32,000 nt of DNA, from the NCBI GenBank assembly GCA_003144275.1, contig NJBF01000026.1, forward strand, positions 35,363 to 67,362. Reading direction: 5' to 3'. Source of the DNA: Candidatus Heimdallarchaeota archaeon B3_Heim. Its GTDB lineage: Archaea; Asgardarchaeota; Heimdallarchaeia; Hodarchaeales; Hodarchaeaceae. A program made the position numbers and the translations under genes. The notes below the pieces were generated by a model. The model made no database searches. It saw nothing but the letters and a program-made list of their open reading frames with translations, and was not told the origin of the DNA. Shown here piece by piece: positions 10-7,139 of the stretch (its first letter is position 1; each line of letters starts with the position of its first letter).

Positions 10-3000
10 TTGAGGGAAGATATCTTGTTTAAGATAACCAAAGAAGGTAAAAACAAAACCATTTTAATACTAGTTTTATTTATTATTGCGGGAAATTCCA
101 CGTTTAACAAAGTTACCATCATTCATGAAAGTACCTATAGTACTGCTTCATTAGTAAATAGAATTTGTGAAAAAGATACGTTTAACCGAAATCTTACAAA
201 ACCTCAATATATACTTACTGAACACGTACAATCAAAATTTGAAATATACAACCAGCCTATTTACAACAGAATCAAACGTGAAACTAGTTCAGATTCCTTT
301 TTCCGAGCCGAAGAGTATAGAAAAAGACATCTTCTTCCCATATCCGATTACAATGGAATATCAACATTTTCGGATCAATCCAGCGCAGTTTATTCTGTGG
401 CATACGGTCCAAATGGAACTATTGCAAGTTCAAGTGATGGATTAATTCTAATATGGAATGCTACAACAGGAAGTATCCTAAATTCACTAAGTTACGGTTC
501 TGCAGTACGATCCATATCTTTCCATCACAATGGAAGTGTTTTAGCCTTTGGAACTGATGATTTCAAAGTGAATCTATGGAATCTTAATACAGATAATGTT
601 AAAACACTAAGTAACCATGCAGGAGCAATTCATTCTGTTTCATTTAGCCCAAATGGCAGCCTTTTAGCTTCAGGATCCGAAGATTGGACGATAAATCTAT
701 GGTATGTTGATGGGACTACAACGCCAATCAAAACTTTAATTGGACATTTTGACACTGTATATGCCGTAGATTTTAGTCATAACGATACTGTTTTAATTTC
801 TGGTTCTGCAGATAATGACATTAGAATCTGGGATGTTAATACTCCAGTGTCAAGCTCAAAAAAATTATTAACTGGCTTTCATAACGATTCTGTAAGATCG
901 GTCTCTTATAGTCCAACGGGGGAATATTTTGCCTCAGGAGCAGGATCAGTTGATAAAACTATTAAAATATGGGATGGATTAACAGCTGCATTAGTTGATA
1001 ATCTAACAGATCATACTGATGTTATAAGATCAGTTACATTTGATCCTAAGAATGATGAACTGTTAGCATCAGGAAGTCAAGATGGTAAGGTGAATCTTTG
1101 GAATATTACAACAGCATCAAAAATCAAAGAGATGACGGATCATTCAGGTTTTGTATATTCTGTTTCTTTTGACCCAAGCGGAAACCACTTGATTTCTGGG
1201 GGAACTGACACAACAGTTAAACTCTGGAACCTCAATCTTGGAAATTTAATAGGAAAAATTGATGGACACACAAATTATATTAATTCCATTGCTTTCAGCC
1301 CTAATGGTAGTTTACTCGCCTCAGGATCTGAGGACACAACCGCAAGAATATGGAACACGACAACTGGAGGTCATTTACTAACTTTACCAGATCATATTTC
1401 CCCAATTGATACTCTTGCATTTAGTCCAAATAGTAGTACATTAGCAACTGGTTCACCGGATAATAATGTTATACTTTGGGATTTAAATGATAACGGAAAT
1501 ATTGTACATATTCTAAACCATCCTACTGATGTAACATCAGTTGTTTTTCATCCAAATGGTTCCATTTTAGCCTCAAGTTTGATTAACAGTAATATATCTC
1601 TTTGGAACATTAATACAGGAGAATTAATTTGCAATTTACCAGGGAATACTGATGAAATCCATTCTTTAACCTTTAATCAAGATGGAAACCACTTAGTTGC
1701 TGGATTACGCGATGGTTCAATAAATATATGGGACGTTGAAACACGATCAATATTAACAAGCTTAACCAATCATAGTGATTCAGTTGTTTCTCTTGCTTTT
1801 AGTTCTAATGCGCAATATTTTGCTTCTGGTTCTAAAGATTCAAGTATTTTAGTTTGGAATGCTTCTACGTTTGAAATAATTTACAATTTAACTGGCCATT
1901 CTGCTGAAATAAAATCTGTGATATTTAGTCCTGATGGAAGTGCATTAGCTTCGTGTGCCGATGATCAAACTATTCAAGTATGGGATATGGTAGATGGTAG
2001 TCGAATTAGGACAATGAATGATCCAAATAATGCAACTTCAGTTGCTTTTAATCTAAATGGGAATATATTAGCCTCTGGAAATCGTCTATCAACAGCAATC
2101 AAATTATGGAATTCAAGCATTTCTCTTCTTAGTTTTGACAATTTTTCTTCATCATTAGTCAAATATAATTCAGATTTAAATTTTAAAAAAGAACCACAGT
2201 GTGAACTGTCTGCAGGATGGAATACAACTTCTCTTACAATCGTACATAATTCTAGCTCATTTAGAACACCATCATCCTTTGACCCATATAGATTGTTTAT
2301 CAAAACAAAATTCTTAGGAAGAGAAATCGCAAGAGATTATAATTTATTCATAATATCAACTTTTACTGATTATGATGGAGATGGTTTGCCCAATTCATGG
2401 GAAAAAATACATTCTACAGATCTCTTAGTGAATGACGCCAGTGATGACATAGACAACGACTATCTTTCAAATTTAGGAGAGTTTCAAGCTCAAACTGATC
2501 CAAACAATAGAGATTCGGACAACGATGGGTGGTTTGATGGATCAGAAGTTTCAAATTCATCAAATCCGCTAGTAAATAACTCTGCTCCTTTTATTACATG
2601 GCCTGAATCTCTAAAGACATTAAATAATTCAGCTACAAACATTTCTAATCAAAGTTGGCAAGTTAACACAACTAATGCAAAATCAATTGATATTTGGGTA
2701 AATGATAATTATACAGAGACAGTTATTTATCCTTTCATCTGGAATGTAACATTAATCGAAGAATTGAATAATTTAACATATATAGCTTATTATGATGTTC
2801 CTGTGAATTATAATAAGACTGTATTCTTAATTACATTAGATTCTACTGCACCAACGATTAATCTTGTTAATCCATTGACTGAAGATGCAGTACTTAATAG
2901 TAAAAGCACAATTACTATAAATGTACAAGGATATAATGAACTATTTTCATATTGGGACAACGGGAGCTTTAGTAAAACAGAAATTCAGACAAAAGTAAAC

Positions 3001-4167
3001 TTTATCTCAAATCATACCTCTCTTAAGCTTTTAAACACAAAAACTGATTCAAATATTAATTTTGAACTACCTGGATCAGATGGAGTTCATACACTCTATT
3101 TAATGGCAGTTGATGAGGTTGGAAATATTCGATTGGCTGATTTTTCATTCATTACAGATGATACTCCTCCAACTGCCATAATCCAAGGAATATCTGAATT
3201 TCTATTTATGTCTGGGACGAAAGTCATTAGAGTTATTCCTAGTGATAATAATTCTATTGATCGAGTTGAATTCGAATTATCGGGAGACCTTATTACCACT
3301 GATAATAATTCACCATATCGGTGGGAATGGAATACAGCTGAAACAGAAGATGGAATTTATTTGATTCGTATTACAGTCTACGATGCCGCAGGAAATGCCT
3401 ACACAAAGACATTTTACGGGATTTTTGTGGTGAATGATCCCATTGAATTTCTCTGTTTCCTTTTCTTAGAGTATTTCCCAGTGTTTTTATTGATTATCCT
3501 TGCAATACTTATCTTAATAATAATATGTAGTATGAGAAAGAAGATTCATATTTTATACACATATGCTAATCCACCAATTAACCCACTAGAAATTAAACCA
3601 GAGATTGTGTTTAATAAAATAGAGGAAGAACTTAAAGAAACAAAGTATGGAAACAGAATAAAACTCATTCAAAAGGGAGAAATAACTAAAGATGATCTTT
3701 CACCATGGCTAGCTGATCCTAATTTTAAACTCAGTGTTTTTCAATTTTCAGGACATGGAAAAAAGGGATATCTTCAATTTATAAACCCAGAGGACACTAA
3801 TCTTGGGGAAGCAATTCCTGCAGATCATATCACTGAAGCTTTTCGTTTACATAAAAATAAAATCAAAATCGTAGTTTTACGAGCATGCTCTTCTTTAAAG
3901 ATTGCTGAGAGTCTAATGGAACATATTGATATTATAATTGGAATGTCCAAAGAAGTTCAAGATGCTGCTGCAGCAAAATTCACAATTGGATTCTATAAGT
4001 TCTTAGCAGCTGGCAAGAACGTGCAAGAAGCATACGAAAAAGGATTATCAGATATGGAAATTTCAAAAGGGCACGGTCGTGATATTGTTAAGTTAGTACA
4101 TCGTGAAGAAGTAAAACCTGGGAAAGTAAAACTCTTTCGATGGCGGTTTTTACTATGTTTTTTATAA
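10..4167 (+). CDS. Single-pass membrane protein: 14x WD40 + TSP3-like Ca-binding repeats + Ig-like domains + TM helix + C-terminal CHAT (caspase-like) protease domain
   Basis: N-terminal basic+hydrophobic segment (KNKTILILVLFIIAG). 14 GH...S(G/A)S.D..I..W(D/N) repeats (nt ~358-2115). Three DxDxD(G) repeats (DYDGDGLPNSWE, DIDNDYLSNLGE, DSDNDGWFDGSE; ~2368-2550). Ig-like segments ending in AVDEVGN and VYDAAGN. Hydrophobic helix at ~3448-3528. CHAT motifs FSGHG (His1249, nt 3754) and VVLRACSS (Cys1293, nt 3886), then IIIGM and FTIGFY. The frame is open back to base 1, so the true start may lie upstream of the window. Confidence 0.9.
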   Translation: MREDILFKITKEGKNKTILILVLFIIAGNSTFNKVTIIHESTYSTASLVNRICEKDTFNRNLTKPQYILTEHVQSKFEIYNQPIYNRIKRETSSDSFFRAEEYRKRHLLPISDYNGISTFSDQSSAVYSVAYGPNGTIASSSDGLILIWNATTGSILNSLSYGSAVRSISFHHNGSVLAFGTDDFKVNLWNLNTDNVKTLSNHAGAIHSVSFSPNGSLLASGSEDWTINLWYVDGTTTPIKTLIGHFDTVYAVDFSHNDTVLISGSADNDIRIWDVNTPVSSSKKLLTGFHNDSVRSVSYSPTGEYFASGAGSVDKTIKIWDGLTAALVDNLTDHTDVIRSVTFDPKNDELLASGSQDGKVNLWNITTASKIKEMTDHSGFVYSVSFDPSGNHLISGGTDTTVKLWNLNLGNLIGKIDGHTNYINSIAFSPNGSLLASGSEDTTARIWNTTTGGHLLTLPDHISPIDTLAFSPNSSTLATGSPDNNVILWDLNDNGNIVHILNHPTDVTSVVFHPNGSILASSLINSNISLWNINTGELICNLPGNTDEIHSLTFNQDGNHLVAGLRDGSINIWDVETRSILTSLTNHSDSVVSLAFSSNAQYFASGSKDSSILVWNASTFEIIYNLTGHSAEIKSVIFSPDGSALASCADDQTIQVWDMVDGSRIRTMNDPNNATSVAFNLNGNILASGNRLSTAIKLWNSSISLLSFDNFSSSLVKYNSDLNFKKEPQCELSAGWNTTSLTIVHNSSSFRTPSSFDPYRLFIKTKFLGREIARDYNLFIISTFTDYDGDGLPNSWEKIHSTDLLVNDASDDIDNDYLSNLGEFQAQTDPNNRDSDNDGWFDGSEVSNSSNPLVNNSAPFITWPESLKTLNNSATNISNQSWQVNTTNAKSIDIWVNDNYTETVIYPFIWNVTLIEELNNLTYIAYYDVPVNYNKTVFLITLDSTAPTINLVNPLTEDAVLNSKSTITINVQGYNELFSYWDNGSFSKTEIQTKVNFISNHTSLKLLNTKTDSNINFELPGSDGVHTLYLMAVDEVGNIRLADFSFITDDTPPTAIIQGISEFLFMSGTKVIRVIPSDNNSIDRVEFELSGDLITTDNNSPYRWEWNTAETEDGIYLIRITVYDAAGNAYTKTFYGIFVVNDPIEFLCFLFLEYFPVFLLIILAILILIIICSMRKKIHILYTYANPPINPLEIKPEIVFNKIEEELKETKYGNRIKLIQKGEITKDDLSPWLADPNFKLSVFQFSGHGKKGYLQFINPEDTNLGEAIPADHITEAFRLHKNKIKIVVLRACSSLKIAESLMEHIDIIIGMSKEVQDAAAAKFTIGFYKFLAAGKNVQEAYEKGLSDMEISKGHGRDIVKLVHREEVKPGKVKLFRWRFLLCFL

Positions 4168-4214
4168 GAAGACTATTTTACTTAAAATGAAGAAAAAGAA
4201 AGGTGAAGAAATAA

Positions 4215-4613
4215 ATGGAAGTTGAAATGAATATAATTTTTGAAGAAAAAATTGAAACAAGTAAATTAAATACTTTTATTAAGGAATTAAACAATGAAAC
4301 CATGAAAATAGATGAAGATCTAGGAGAAATGAGAACATTCAAAGAAACAAGTCAAGCAATGCCTCTTGATCCCATAATAAAACAATTACTTATCGCTGTT
4401 TTAGCACCTATTTTTACCGACTACATTCGAGAAAAGAGTCCTGTTGCAAAAAAATATGCCAAAAAAATGTTTAAGAAAGTCTTTGAAAAGATGAAAAAAT
4501 TAACAAACAAATCAAAGATTGTCATCAAAAAGGCAGGAGAAGAGATAATGACTCTACTCGAAGGCACTGATGAAGAATTTGATAAAGCAGTGAGAATACT
4601 CTCACTAGAATAA
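4215..4613 (+). CDS. Small hypothetical protein, EACC1-like putative partner/substrate of the CHAT protease
   Basis: AGGTGA Shine-Dalgarno before the ATG, 47 nt after the CHAT gene stop, T-tract after its own stop. Strand-helix-strand, QAMP loop, hydrophobic/amphipathic helix (LDPIIKQLLIAVLAPIF), then KIVIKKAGEEI and a terminal helix. The family assignment is from recalled pattern only. Confidence 0.6.
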   Translation: MEVEMNIIFEEKIETSKLNTFIKELNNETMKIDEDLGEMRTFKETSQAMPLDPIIKQLLIAVLAPIFTDYIREKSPVAKKYAKKMFKKVFEKMKKLTNKSKIVIKKAGEEIMTLLEGTDEEFDKAVRILSLE

Positions 4614-5000
4614 AATATTCCTTTTTTATTTCTGAGAATTAATTAATAAAGATATTGAAGACCTTAAAAAAATTAGAGATGGATCAATCTAAAATAATGT
4701 CGTAAAATAATATTTTTACGACAATCACTTTCCAAGTGCTTGTCTCATCTATAATCGTGAAAAAGAGGGAGGTGTGAGATCTTCCGCGGTAGATTATCAA
4801 AATACGGTAACACTTCAGCAAATACCCATTCAGCTTTGATGATGGAGTCACAAAAAATAATCCTCCTTTAACGAAGAGCTCCTCTCCGATACAAATTTGG
4901 GTGTTTATTAATCATTGTGTATGTTTTTTCTTATGATGCCACCTAGAACTGAACCGACTAATAAATAAGTCCTCAACTATTCATAAATGAGATTCAAGCC

Positions 5001-7139
5001 TTGCAGACTAGTTCCACATCATTTCATTTCGATTTTATTCCTGATAAGATAGATCAATCAAGTATTAAGCTTCTTAGAAATGTATCTGATTCTTTTACTC
5101 TAGAATACGCGATTTTTGAACCCAAAACGGTTCATATTTGCATGCATGTTAAACCTAGAAGACGTTTTTTCAGACGTTCCTCACATTCTGCAACTGCTAC
5201 ACTCCAGCAATTCATTATTTCTCTCGGACTTCATGCCGACTTTCTCAAACCAAGTGAAGATCCGATCCCTAGACTTCTTAGTATGATCGAGCCCCAGTTT
5301 TTTCTAGACCCAGAAGAACCCTGTCTTCATAGCGGTGGGTTGCTGGGTCTAGAAATTGACTCTTTACCTTCTTTATCAACGAAAGATGGATTCATTAATG
5401 GGTTACTTGAAATAATCACTGATGATCCAACTTTCACCCTTTTACAGATTCCATTCAAATCACAGAAAATTCCGAAAGAATTTCAATCCTTAGAAACTGC
5501 TGATTATAGAAACCAAATTAGATTTAATATCCAACAAGGAAAGGTTGAACGTCGTTCACATCCTTTCAGTATGAATCTTATGGAAGAAGCTGGTTGTTTT
5601 GCTTTTTCAGTTCATCTTTTGATGGTTGAGCGTTCAGAAGAACAGCTACTAGCCAAATTAGAACGAGTCTCTGTATTTCTAAAAGCCCATGGAATTAAGA
5701 CTCGGAAATATCCTTCCTTTTTACGTCCGTTTAAACGTTTTAAATCACATTTCAAGAGCCGATCTATCCATCCAGCCTTGGTTACTGATGGATTCACGTT
5801 AATGAATTATCTATCGTTACCAACCAATCAATATTCACTACATGGGTATCAAATAGTCCCTCACAAGGAGAATTATAATATGTCTTCCACTTTATCACAT
5901 CTTGATACAGAAAATACCCTTAGAATTGGAACCCCAATTCTGAGTGGGAAAACAACTGATTCTCCTATGCTTCTTTCAGGTAAAGATCTGTCTCGTCATA
6001 TGGCGGTATTTGGGATGACAGGAGAAGGGAAAAGTCGGTTTGTCTTTAACCTAATTCAAGAATTTCACAAAAATAAAGTGAATTTCTTAATTATAGACCC
6101 CAAAGGTGAATATATCCATCCAGTACAAACATTTTGTCAAGATTTTTTTTATATTAAACCAGGTTCTGATTCCTTTCCTTGGGGGATTAACCTTTTTGAA
6201 GTTCCTTTGGATCCACAAGGTCAGCCTCTGATCTCTCCAGAAGATCATATTCAATTCGTTGTTTCATTGCTCGAAAATGTGGTTGATGAAGCTAATTCTT
6301 TATCTCCCCAGATGAGACGCTTAATCCAATTAGCTACCATTCAAACCATTAAAGAGAAAGGCGATTTCAAATTATTCTTACAATGCTTAAATAAGCCTAA
6401 TGCCCTTGGACTCAAAGGAGCCTATTTAGAAAATACATCGGCCGGTACCGTTAACCGTATCATGAAGCTGTTATTTGGGAATACTGGAAGATGTTTTACT
6501 GTGAGCTCAACCACGTTTGATATTTCGCAATTTCTCTCTCACAATATTATTTTGGATTTATCGACATTTGAAGCAATGGAAGACATAAATGGCCGACAAT
6601 TACTTCTGGAGGTTATATTCCAGTATCTCTATTACTATATCCGGAAATTTCGTCCCCCCTTCAAAGAAGAAAAACTTCCCCAGAATGTCATAATCCTTGA
6701 TGAAATCAACAAACTCCTACCTGCACCCACCTATAGACAATCAACACCAAAGTCAATAATTGGCCGCGGGCCTTGGACCTTGCGTGCATATGATGTATCA
6801 ATGGTGTTTATAGGAACCGACCCAATAATAGATCTTCCTATGTTGACGAATGCGGGTGTATTTGCAATGTTTTATTCGAAGTTCGATTCATATAAAATCG
6901 CAGATTTTTTGGGTATTTCTAAGGGCACGTATGATCAATTGAAACCCCTACTTAAGGCCAAACCTGATGAAAGAAGATGTTTACTTTCGGTTAATAAAAA
7001 TGTGACCTTGTTGAAAACAGATCAATTTGAGCTAAGTTCTTCGAACTCCTCTATCTTTGAATTGTTGAAAGAAAATCCTATTCAGATGCATCTCAGAGAA
7101 AGTTATACCCAGAACTATTTTCAGCCAATCTTTGAGTAA
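5001..7139 (+). CDS. HerA/VirB4-like (DUF87-type) P-loop ATPase with a long N-terminal domain
   Basis: DLSRHMAVFGMTGEGKS (Walker A), IIDPKGEY, IILDEIN (Walker B), LRAY (Arg-finger region). TTG start is uncertain. Confidence 0.85.
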   Translation: MQTSSTSFHFDFIPDKIDQSSIKLLRNVSDSFTLEYAIFEPKTVHICMHVKPRRRFFRRSSHSATATLQQFIISLGLHADFLKPSEDPIPRLLSMIEPQFFLDPEEPCLHSGGLLGLEIDSLPSLSTKDGFINGLLEIITDDPTFTLLQIPFKSQKIPKEFQSLETADYRNQIRFNIQQGKVERRSHPFSMNLMEEAGCFAFSVHLLMVERSEEQLLAKLERVSVFLKAHGIKTRKYPSFLRPFKRFKSHFKSRSIHPALVTDGFTLMNYLSLPTNQYSLHGYQIVPHKENYNMSSTLSHLDTENTLRIGTPILSGKTTDSPMLLSGKDLSRHMAVFGMTGEGKSRFVFNLIQEFHKNKVNFLIIDPKGEYIHPVQTFCQDFFYIKPGSDSFPWGINLFEVPLDPQGQPLISPEDHIQFVVSLLENVVDEANSLSPQMRRLIQLATIQTIKEKGDFKLFLQCLNKPNALGLKGAYLENTSAGTVNRIMKLLFGNTGRCFTVSSTTFDISQFLSHNIILDLSTFEAMEDINGRQLLLEVIFQYLYYYIRKFRPPFKEEKLPQNVIILDEINKLLPAPTYRQSTPKSIIGRGPWTLRAYDVSMVFIGTDPIIDLPMLTNAGVFAMFYSKFDSYKIADFLGISKGTYDQLKPLLKAKPDERRCLLSVNKNVTLLKTDQFELSSSNSSIFELLKENPIQMHLRESYTQNYFQPIFE

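Follow-up and report, generated by a model that had tools for sequence, protein, structure and literature searches.

We have analysed a small gene at 4215..4613 (+) of a 32,000-nucleotide (nt) stretch, hereafter the window, of a 3.9-Mb metagenome-assembled genome (MAG) of the Hodarchaeota (Asgard), Candidatus Heimdallarchaeota archaeon B3_Heim (GenBank assembly GCA_003144275.1, contig NJBF01000026.1, positions 35,363 to 67,362 of the forward strand). The gene follows a second one encoding a large receptor-like protein that ends in a predicted CHAT/caspase-like protease domain. Our findings give a slight preference to a reading in which the 132-residue product of the small gene, P0001, serves the upstream CHAT protease as its dedicated substrate and effector in the cytoplasm, a membrane attacker that would be released by a cut. 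The nearest known parallel is EACC1, the constant small component located 5' of caspase-led multi-domain proteins in the so-called 'System 4' (Kaur, Burroughs, Iyer & Aravind 2020, PMC7159879). EACC1 is an autoinhibited monomer which is cut at Asp49 by its partner caspase, yielding a 5.7-kDa N-terminal fragment and a 7.1-kDa C-terminal fragment that is toxic and permeabilises liposomes (Evans et al. 2025, bioRxiv 10.1101/2025.11.14.688446). P0001 is EACC1-like in its layout and probably in its mechanism, without being a demonstrated member of the corresponding Pfam family, PF19953.

The family of P0001 comprises six proteins (P0001, P0003, P0005, P0006, P0007 and P0008, aligned together for the analyses below), which occur in five distinct genomic contexts, and in four of the five the small gene lies 4-82 nt 3' of a gene ending in a CHAT domain. 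In the window, P0001 comes 47 nt after a gene of the type WD40-immunoglobulin (Ig)-transmembrane-CHAT, while at locus L019 an ortholog of this receptor (P0011, 47% identity, rising to 58% in the CHAT part) is followed by P0005 after 82 nt. A different partner is found in the congeneric genome G019 (L013/L023/L024/L037), where a 914-residue Ras/Roc-GTPase...CHAT protein precedes P0008; the latter begins 4 nt past the stop codon, which its Shine-Dalgarno (SD) sequence overlaps, and the CHAT domain of this protein is 33% identical to that of the window. On the 538-bp contig L010, only 36 nt of a reading frame are present upstream of P0003, and their terminal part resembles the tail of the window's CHAT gene, a likeness that is suggestive only as a sign of CHAT linkage. 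The decisive point for the linkage is that two proteins alike only in their CHAT domain each precede a member of the family. The window, L019 and L023 loci all have nothing in common but the CHAT domain and the small gene; a constant small protein and a constant protease domain go together with a variable sensor part, WD40-Ig-transmembrane in the window and L019 and Ras/Roc in L023. No other effector gene is conserved between loci of either sensor system. Less closely related CHAT homologs of the class, at 27-32% identity, had no member of the small-gene family as neighbour.

The G019 protein deserves a remark of its own. Encoded at L023:3137-5881, it consists of an N-terminal Ras/Roc GTPase (Pfam Ras E=4e-42), about 500 unassigned helical residues and the C-terminal CHAT domain, and represents an Asgard-archaeal case of a ROCO-like GTPase joined to a protease of the caspase fold.

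In the fifth context (L020/L021/L022/L056, independent assemblies from four samples) the small gene stands behind a truncated helix-turn-helix (HTH)-like open reading frame (ORF), P0009. DNA comparison showed that this context and that of L019 share only a unit of 519 bp (L019:3725-4243 = L020:450-968 = L021:3175-3693 = L022:2088-2606), which is 99.6% identical, has sharp borders and holds nothing but the small gene with 59 nt on its upstream side and 67 nt on its downstream side. At the orphan locus the unit supplies the last 9 codons of P0009, and no flanking repeats were seen around it. Since only this sharply bounded and nearly identical unit is shared, the fifth context looks like a recently copied autonomous cassette. 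As a separate observation, a 216-residue protein without Pfam hit (L022:696-1346, L021:1783-2433) is encoded 0.8 kb upstream of the orphan copy; it begins with M-T-I-N-F, carries G-S-D near residue 17 and vaguely recalls Ntn/proteasome-type hydrolases.

The gene upstream of P0001 (10..4167, +) encodes a receptor-like protein of 1385 residues, as judged from Pfam matches (WD40, Big_7, Big_13 and TSP3_bac), hydropathy and the L019 ortholog. Its elements run in the order N-terminal membrane anchor, some 13-14 WD40 repeats, a TSP3 repeat, Ig-like domains (Big_7, Big_13), a transmembrane helix and the CHAT domain, and hydropathy windows revealed one strong transmembrane helix at about residues 1144-1175. 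The C-terminal domain (about residues 1180-1385; 3547..4164, +), predicted to be cytoplasmic, can be assigned to the CHAT/caspase fold by its His...Cys dyad and by its likeness to known CHAT domains: it matched the 'CHAT domain-containing protein' of PDB 8tl0 with E=1.4e-8 and, in tblastn, many annotated bacterial CHAT proteins (1e-10 to 6e-18). The Pfam CHAT model reached E=0.002 and 18.1 bits, under the cut-off of 24 bits, and the sole NCBIfam match of the domain was 'caspase, EACC1-associated type' (E=0.0046, far under cut-off). When the CHAT alignment was compared by hhalign with a canonical EACC1-associated caspase, the His and Cys motifs were aligned, at a probability of 2.3%. The predicted catalytic dyad is formed by His1249 (codon 3754-3756, +) and Cys1293 (codon 3886-3888, +), both invariant in three homologs, in agreement with the choice of C1293 as catalytic cysteine in the original prediction. 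The receptor also shows an uneven distribution of N-x-S/T sequons, which are dense in the WD40/Ig/TSP3 part (10-3441, +) and absent from the CHAT part; this distribution fits an extracellular, N-glycosylated propeller, which would be unusual for WD40 domains.

The ORF at 4215..4613 is a real gene under purifying selection, confined to a very narrow lineage. Pairwise dN/dS between P0001 and its relatives is 0.10-0.22, with saturated dS, and these values together with the existence of five relatives identify the ORF as protein-coding; an AlphaFold2 (AF2) model was obtained as well. All the features that had originally been read around it are present in the sequence: the gene lies on the same strand as the CHAT gene, whose stop codon (4165-4167) is separated from the ATG at 4215 by 47 nt, an SD-like GGTGA (4202..4206, +) stands 8 nt 5' of the ATG, and the stop codon at 4611-4613 is followed by a T6 tract (4622-4627) which, extended by ATTT (4622..4631, +), resembles an oligo-T terminator at the end of the two-gene unit. 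AGGTGA is also found 5' of the homologs on L019/L020 and L013. The TATA-box-like TTTTATAA (4160..4167, +) extends over the CHAT gene's stop codon; judging from the letters, it may represent an archaeal TATA box, and with it a promoter for P0001 itself, and the 519-bp cassette of the relatives, beginning 59 nt 5' of the ATG, takes in the equivalent region. The sequencing runs listed as matching positions 3600-4900 of the window were two sediment DNA runs, each with a small word share, and none was an RNA run.

The family is very small. When 1.84 billion representatives were searched exhaustively with phmmer, a single true relative of P0001 came up, P0003 (50% identity). A further search, by profile against 5.8 billion proteins, brought in P0005, P0006 and P0007 (55-56% identity) as well as P0008 (22%). 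P0004, a 1107-residue eukaryote-like repeat protein (E=1e-5), was discarded as a low-complexity match. Among 400 Asgard species genomes only two were carriers, the window's genome and G019, both Hodarchaeota. Scans of genome contigs with alignments A1 and A3 (the latter being that of the CHAT domain) found nothing further, and the only locus detected in metagenome contigs was the orphan-cassette locus already known. In Pfam, NCBIfam and PADLOC the small proteins yielded only sub-threshold noise (RGS, ETRAMP, HamA E=0.0057; SLATT_fungal E=0.003 for P0003), and the PDB sequence search with the small protein gave nothing relevant. Because the family is invisible to these profile libraries, protease partners of the P0001 kind are probably under-counted.

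According to its AF2 model, built on the six-sequence alignment with a predicted local distance difference test score (pLDDT) of 74, P0001 is composed of the strands (E) and helices (H) E3-9, H15-36, E57-61, H63-73/76-96, E100-106, E109-114 and H119-130, with a linker after the first helix. Residues 1-38 (4215..4328, +), comprising strand 3-9 and helix 15-36, make up an acidic N-terminal module, which is proposed to act as a masking pro-piece. The linker that follows (residues 39-53; 4329..4373, +) ends in the invariant Pro53 and is the proposed cleavage region; it includes the only low-confidence part of the model (pLDDT <50 at residues 39-51), and within this part lies the ETSQAMP loop (residues 44-50) to which attention had been drawn from the sequence. 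The accompanying claim of a GxMG-like loop applies to the relatives, which have GQVMG, GQAMG or GQALG, but not to P0001 itself, where the corresponding residues are SQAMP. The linker sits where genuine EACC1 has the loop between strands 2 and 3, near the cut position Asp49 of the K. racemifer EACC1, and for a hypothetical cut at residues 47-52 the computed fragment masses are 5.6-6.2 and 9.2-9.8 kDa. Cuts placed specifically after Arg40, Met49 or Asp52 were dropped, none of these residues being conserved in P0008.

The remainder of the protein conforms to what the original prediction had described as a hydrophobic-to-basic amphipathic helix followed by a small C-terminal beta/helix unit. The hydrophobic segment (residues 54-71; 4374..4427, +) reaches a Kyte-Doolittle 19-residue maximum of 1.58, against 1.85-1.97 in true EACC1 proteins and 2.27 in P0008, whose segment is of transmembrane length. 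The Lys-rich amphipathic helix (residues 76-96; 4440..4502, +), an insertion relative to EACC1, has a net charge of +7 and a hydrophobic moment of 0.65, equalled by 0 of 2000 shuffles, and was modelled with a pLDDT of 84-90. The C-terminal unit (4512..4604, +) consists in the model of a beta-hairpin (strands 100-106 and 109-114) and helix 119-130, with a conserved G-T-x-E-E motif in which G117, T118 and E121 are invariant across the family. A marked split of the isoelectric point (pI), 4.05-4.4 for the N-terminal half and 9.5-9.9 for the C-terminal half, characterises all six members, including the one with 22% identity. Complex prediction of the CHAT domain with the small protein, run without controls, returned scores of 0.32, 0.01 and 0.01, which count neither for nor against a complex.

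For comparison with EACC1, a reference set was assembled from a PF19953 search of the 400 Asgard genomes (profile cut-off 23.6 bits), in which a truncated ORF of genome G016 was used as query to gather 35 full-length relatives. As a positive control, 34 of the 35 are annotated as PF19953, some of them from Hodarchaeota, and an alignment of 24 EACC1 proteins served in the comparisons. The AF2 model of a genuine Hodarchaeota EACC1, P0014 (E10-17, H25-42, E45-51, E58-65, H69-85, E89-97, E100-107, H113-127), has the same order of elements as that of P0001, in which strand 2 is unmodelled; both would thus be small alpha+beta proteins with a central hydrophobic segment. The P0014 model matches EACC1 clusters with TM scores of 0.81/0.85 and, after them, generic ferredoxin-like domains; structure searches with the P0001 models retrieved generic ferredoxin-like plaits only. 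In the ESM Atlas, the first structural neighbour of P0008 is an EACC1 cluster (TM 0.64/0.58, 111 residues aligned), and the top three named hits by features are all EACC1, both for P0008 (0.89/0.88/0.86) and for P0001 (0.86-0.87, 'lead only' by the tool's calibration). Altogether, the evidence from predicted folds and embeddings for an EACC1 likeness is positive but soft.

At the sequence level the likeness is absent or marginal. With the filters of hmmsearch off, the EACC1 profile scored 7.2 bits on P0003 and 4.3 bits on P0008, weakly and in the expected register, with local-shuffle p values of about 0.003-0.005 and about 0.03, respectively. A patch of small and glycine residues in the hydrophobic helix is an EACC1 trait (Kaur et al. 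2020, PMC7159879); true EACC1 proteins have an invariant A-L-G-S-A-G-A, P0008 has A-P-A-I-G-A-V-V-G, P0003 A-V-V-A-G-V, and P0001 A-V-L-A-P, with no glycine. PF19953 gave no hit across the window's whole genome, and its hits in genomes G332, G364 and G370 were rejected as spurious, as they fell on transmembrane anchors of unrelated membrane proteins. PF19953 was likewise not found on eight large plasmids of cyanobacteria, actinomycetes and Chloroflexota. In a search of plasmids by tblastn, the CHAT domain detected bacterial CHAT proteins in vWA-MoxR, TIR and SAVED systems, none of them beside an EACC1. Given sequence tests that are negative or marginal and fold and embedding evidence that is positive but soft, P0001 is filed as EACC1-like and not as PF19953.

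Several results weigh against P0001 being an EACC1-like substrate and effector of the CHAT protease. At E<=10, PF19953 matched none of P0001, its two halves, P0003, P0005, P0007 and P0008; hhalign of the six-sequence family with the 24 EACC1 proteins gave a probability of 1.5% over 25 columns, out of register, with no improvement in global and low-mact modes; and P0001 itself scored only 0.5 bits with the EACC1 profile (hmmsearch, filters off), which is not significant (p about 0.14). In EACC1-caspase systems the small gene lies 5' of an N-terminal Peptidase_C14, whereas P0001 lies 3' of a C-terminal CHAT domain, and the canonical EACC1-first order, visible in the Hodarchaeota loci L054 and L051, is not the one seen here. 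The EACC1-like identity put forward in the original prediction is upheld by the order of elements and the Atlas neighbours, but not by Pfam, hhalign or gene arrangement. Within P0001, the apolar residues of the hydrophobic stretch run uninterrupted for only about 10 positions, less than a classical transmembrane helix requires, and no potential P1 residue is conserved across the whole family. The tie to CHAT genes, for which a check of co-occurrence had been proposed, extends over two unrelated sensor architectures and breaks down in one lineage, that of the fifth context, where a CHAT gene is absent within 3 kb upstream and 6 kb downstream. Since only six family members are known, the co-occurrence statistics are thin.

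The mechanism that we propose would operate as follows. At rest, P0001 would be a small ferredoxin-like alpha+beta protein whose acidic strand-helix unit at the N-terminus (pI about 4) rests against a cationic C-terminal part (pI about 9.6) and offsets its charge; the latter part is made of the hydrophobic segment, the Lys-rich amphipathic helix and the beta-hairpin. The sensor part (in the window, the WD40 propellers outside the cell; in the sister system, a Roc GTPase) would activate the CHAT domain lying beneath the membrane, which might bind P0001 and cut its exposed linker at residues about 39-53, allowing the acidic mask to dissociate. The freed basic fragment of ~9.5 kDa could then bind to the membrane and make it permeable, either singly or as an oligomer, and the outcome might be cell death, dormancy or a signal. 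The same cut-and-release logic has been shown experimentally for bacterial EACC1 (bioRxiv 10.1101/2025.11.14.688446).

An alternative that we judge unlikely is that the small protein is a partner of the CHAT protease without being its substrate. It might then regulate the protease as an inhibitor ('safety catch'), an adaptor or a tether to the membrane. Adjacency to CHAT would fit any physical partnership, the acidic N-terminal half could equally dock on a basic surface of the protease, and the lack of a conserved P1 residue in the linker also speaks for a regulator. The masked cationic amphipathic helix and the hydrophobic segment, however, look like a latent membrane effector and not like an inhibitor; besides, the nearest neighbours in structure and embedding space are EACC1, experimentally a cleaved effector, and neither system has another effector gene conserved between loci. 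Even less probable, in our view, is that the small gene, equipped with a promoter and terminator of its own, constitutes an autonomous cassette of an accessory or mobile island, its adjacency to CHAT reflecting a shared island history instead of a functional pair. The 519-bp unit occurs in two unrelated contexts, one of them lacking CHAT and cutting another ORF, the gene has its own TATA-like element and SD in the window, and its surroundings consist of lineage-specific accessory genes, all of which favour such an origin. Hitch-hiking is nevertheless hard to invoke, because the divergent P0008 (22% identity) is found again only 4 nt behind a CHAT domain, in a host protein otherwise unlike the window's receptor; and the orphan copy, being nearly identical to a CHAT-linked one, may have arisen by recent duplication and be served in trans. 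Both the regulator and the cassette explanations fit the charge and amphipathic design of P0001, and the Roc-CHAT/P0008 pairing, less well than a cleaved effector would.

Common descent raises a different question, one compatible with the effector mechanism: the family could genuinely descend from EACC1, as a branch that has diverged to an extreme degree and was rearranged behind a C-terminal CHAT domain, instead of being a convergent analogue. We consider this a serious possibility, albeit short of an even chance. It would account for the shared order of elements in the AF2 models, the EACC1 neighbours in the Atlas by features and structure, and the weak in-register hmmsearch alignments with their G-x-x-R, G-x-x-G and I-L-x-A-x-x-A-G correspondences, and an EACC1 source was at hand, since canonical EACC1-Peptidase_C14 pairs exist in Hodarchaeota MAGs. 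On the other hand, the hhalign probability is very low, the shuffle controls are marginal and not significant for P0001, the partner protease is of the CHAT type and not Peptidase_C14, and ferredoxin-like plaits are very common. With or without common descent, a cleaved effector of the CHAT protease is the reading of P0001 that we narrowly prefer.

The canonical pairs just mentioned consist of an EACC1 (PF19953) gene followed, with a 4-nt overlap, by a Peptidase_C14 gene with Ig/BACON-like domains (L054:1187-3480, L051:7001-9297 and L053:411-2707), and come from MAGs that carry the label Candidatus Hodarchaeota (GCA_048887365.1) and from a contig of 111 kb in GCA_964550165.1. In the window's own genus, a C-terminally truncated EACC1 of 93 residues (L047:373-654, G016:C148) scored 21.9 bits with Pfam, under the 23.6-bit cut-off; because no caspase gene follows, this ORF is probably the decayed remnant of an EACC1-caspase pair. 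Directly 3' of the two-gene unit of the window, at 5001-7139 (+), lies the gene for a 712-residue protein with a HerA/FtsK-type ATPase core (DUF87 E=8e-16), to whose N-terminal 300 residues no family could be assigned. This gene is probably outside the module, as it is not conserved beside the family in L019, L020 and L023.

Should the cleaved-effector mechanism hold, the range of protease-licensed membrane effectors, so far characterised in bacteria and eukaryotes alone, would widen to include the Asgard archaea, and this effector logic would be coupled to a transmembrane receptor reminiscent of eukaryotic death receptors. A more far-reaching picture, which we offer only tentatively and regard as rather doubtful, is that of an Asgard 'death-receptor-like' pathway leading from a glycosylated extracellular WD40 receptor through one transmembrane helix to a caspase-fold protease and a cationic, membrane-permeabilising fragment of a small pro-protein, with a cytosolic Roc-GTPase sensor in the sister species. 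This would be an independently evolved or unrecognisably diverged counterpart of the caspase-gasdermin and EACC1 systems in the prokaryotes most closely related to eukaryotes. The system is small and well defined, with a protease domain of 206 residues and a putative substrate of 132.

Among known systems, the EACC1-caspase pairs are the most similar: in both, a protein of ~115-135 residues adjoins the caspase-fold domain of a variable multi-domain sensor, and both share the predicted order of elements, a central hydrophobic segment and a cut expected near residue 50. P0001 differs from EACC1 in its extra Lys-rich amphipathic helix of ~20 residues, its strong acidic/basic split, a glycine patch that is largely missing and its Asgard host, and has no Pfam or HMM-HMM (hidden Markov model) similarity to it. 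In defence, SAVED-CHAT (PDB 8tl0) acts on PCaspase, and the TPR-CHAT of Craspase on Csx30. As in the P0001 pair, a sensor-controlled CHAT domain is accompanied by a specific protein encoded nearby, whose role as a substrate is here presumed; the sensors, however, are cyclic-nucleotide or CRISPR modules there, whereas here a WD40 receptor exposed outside the cell or a Roc GTPase would take that part, and the substrates are a second protease or a sigma-factor regulator there and presumably a small membrane-active protein here. In the precursors of defensins and cathelicidins, a cationic, amphipathic, membrane-active part is kept neutral by an acidic pro-region until proteolysis occurs. These precursors offer an analogy only, since they are eukaryotic, secreted and unrelated in sequence, whereas the P0001 system is predicted to be cytoplasmic. 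Bacterial gasdermins and Pepco/Trypco proteins, each with its protease, are latent permeabilisers freed by one cut (bioRxiv 10.1101/2025.11.14.688446). The logic proposed for P0001 is the same as that of bacterial gasdermin and Pepco/Trypco, but the folds and sizes are unrelated, and neither lipidation nor beta-barrel features were seen in P0001. What was already known, therefore, is the protease-licensed effector logic of EACC1, Pepco and gasdermin; what is new is a family invisible to profile libraries, placed in reversed order beside a C-terminal CHAT domain and bearing an added cationic helix, in a host from the Asgard archaea whose predicted sensor is a transmembrane WD40 receptor.

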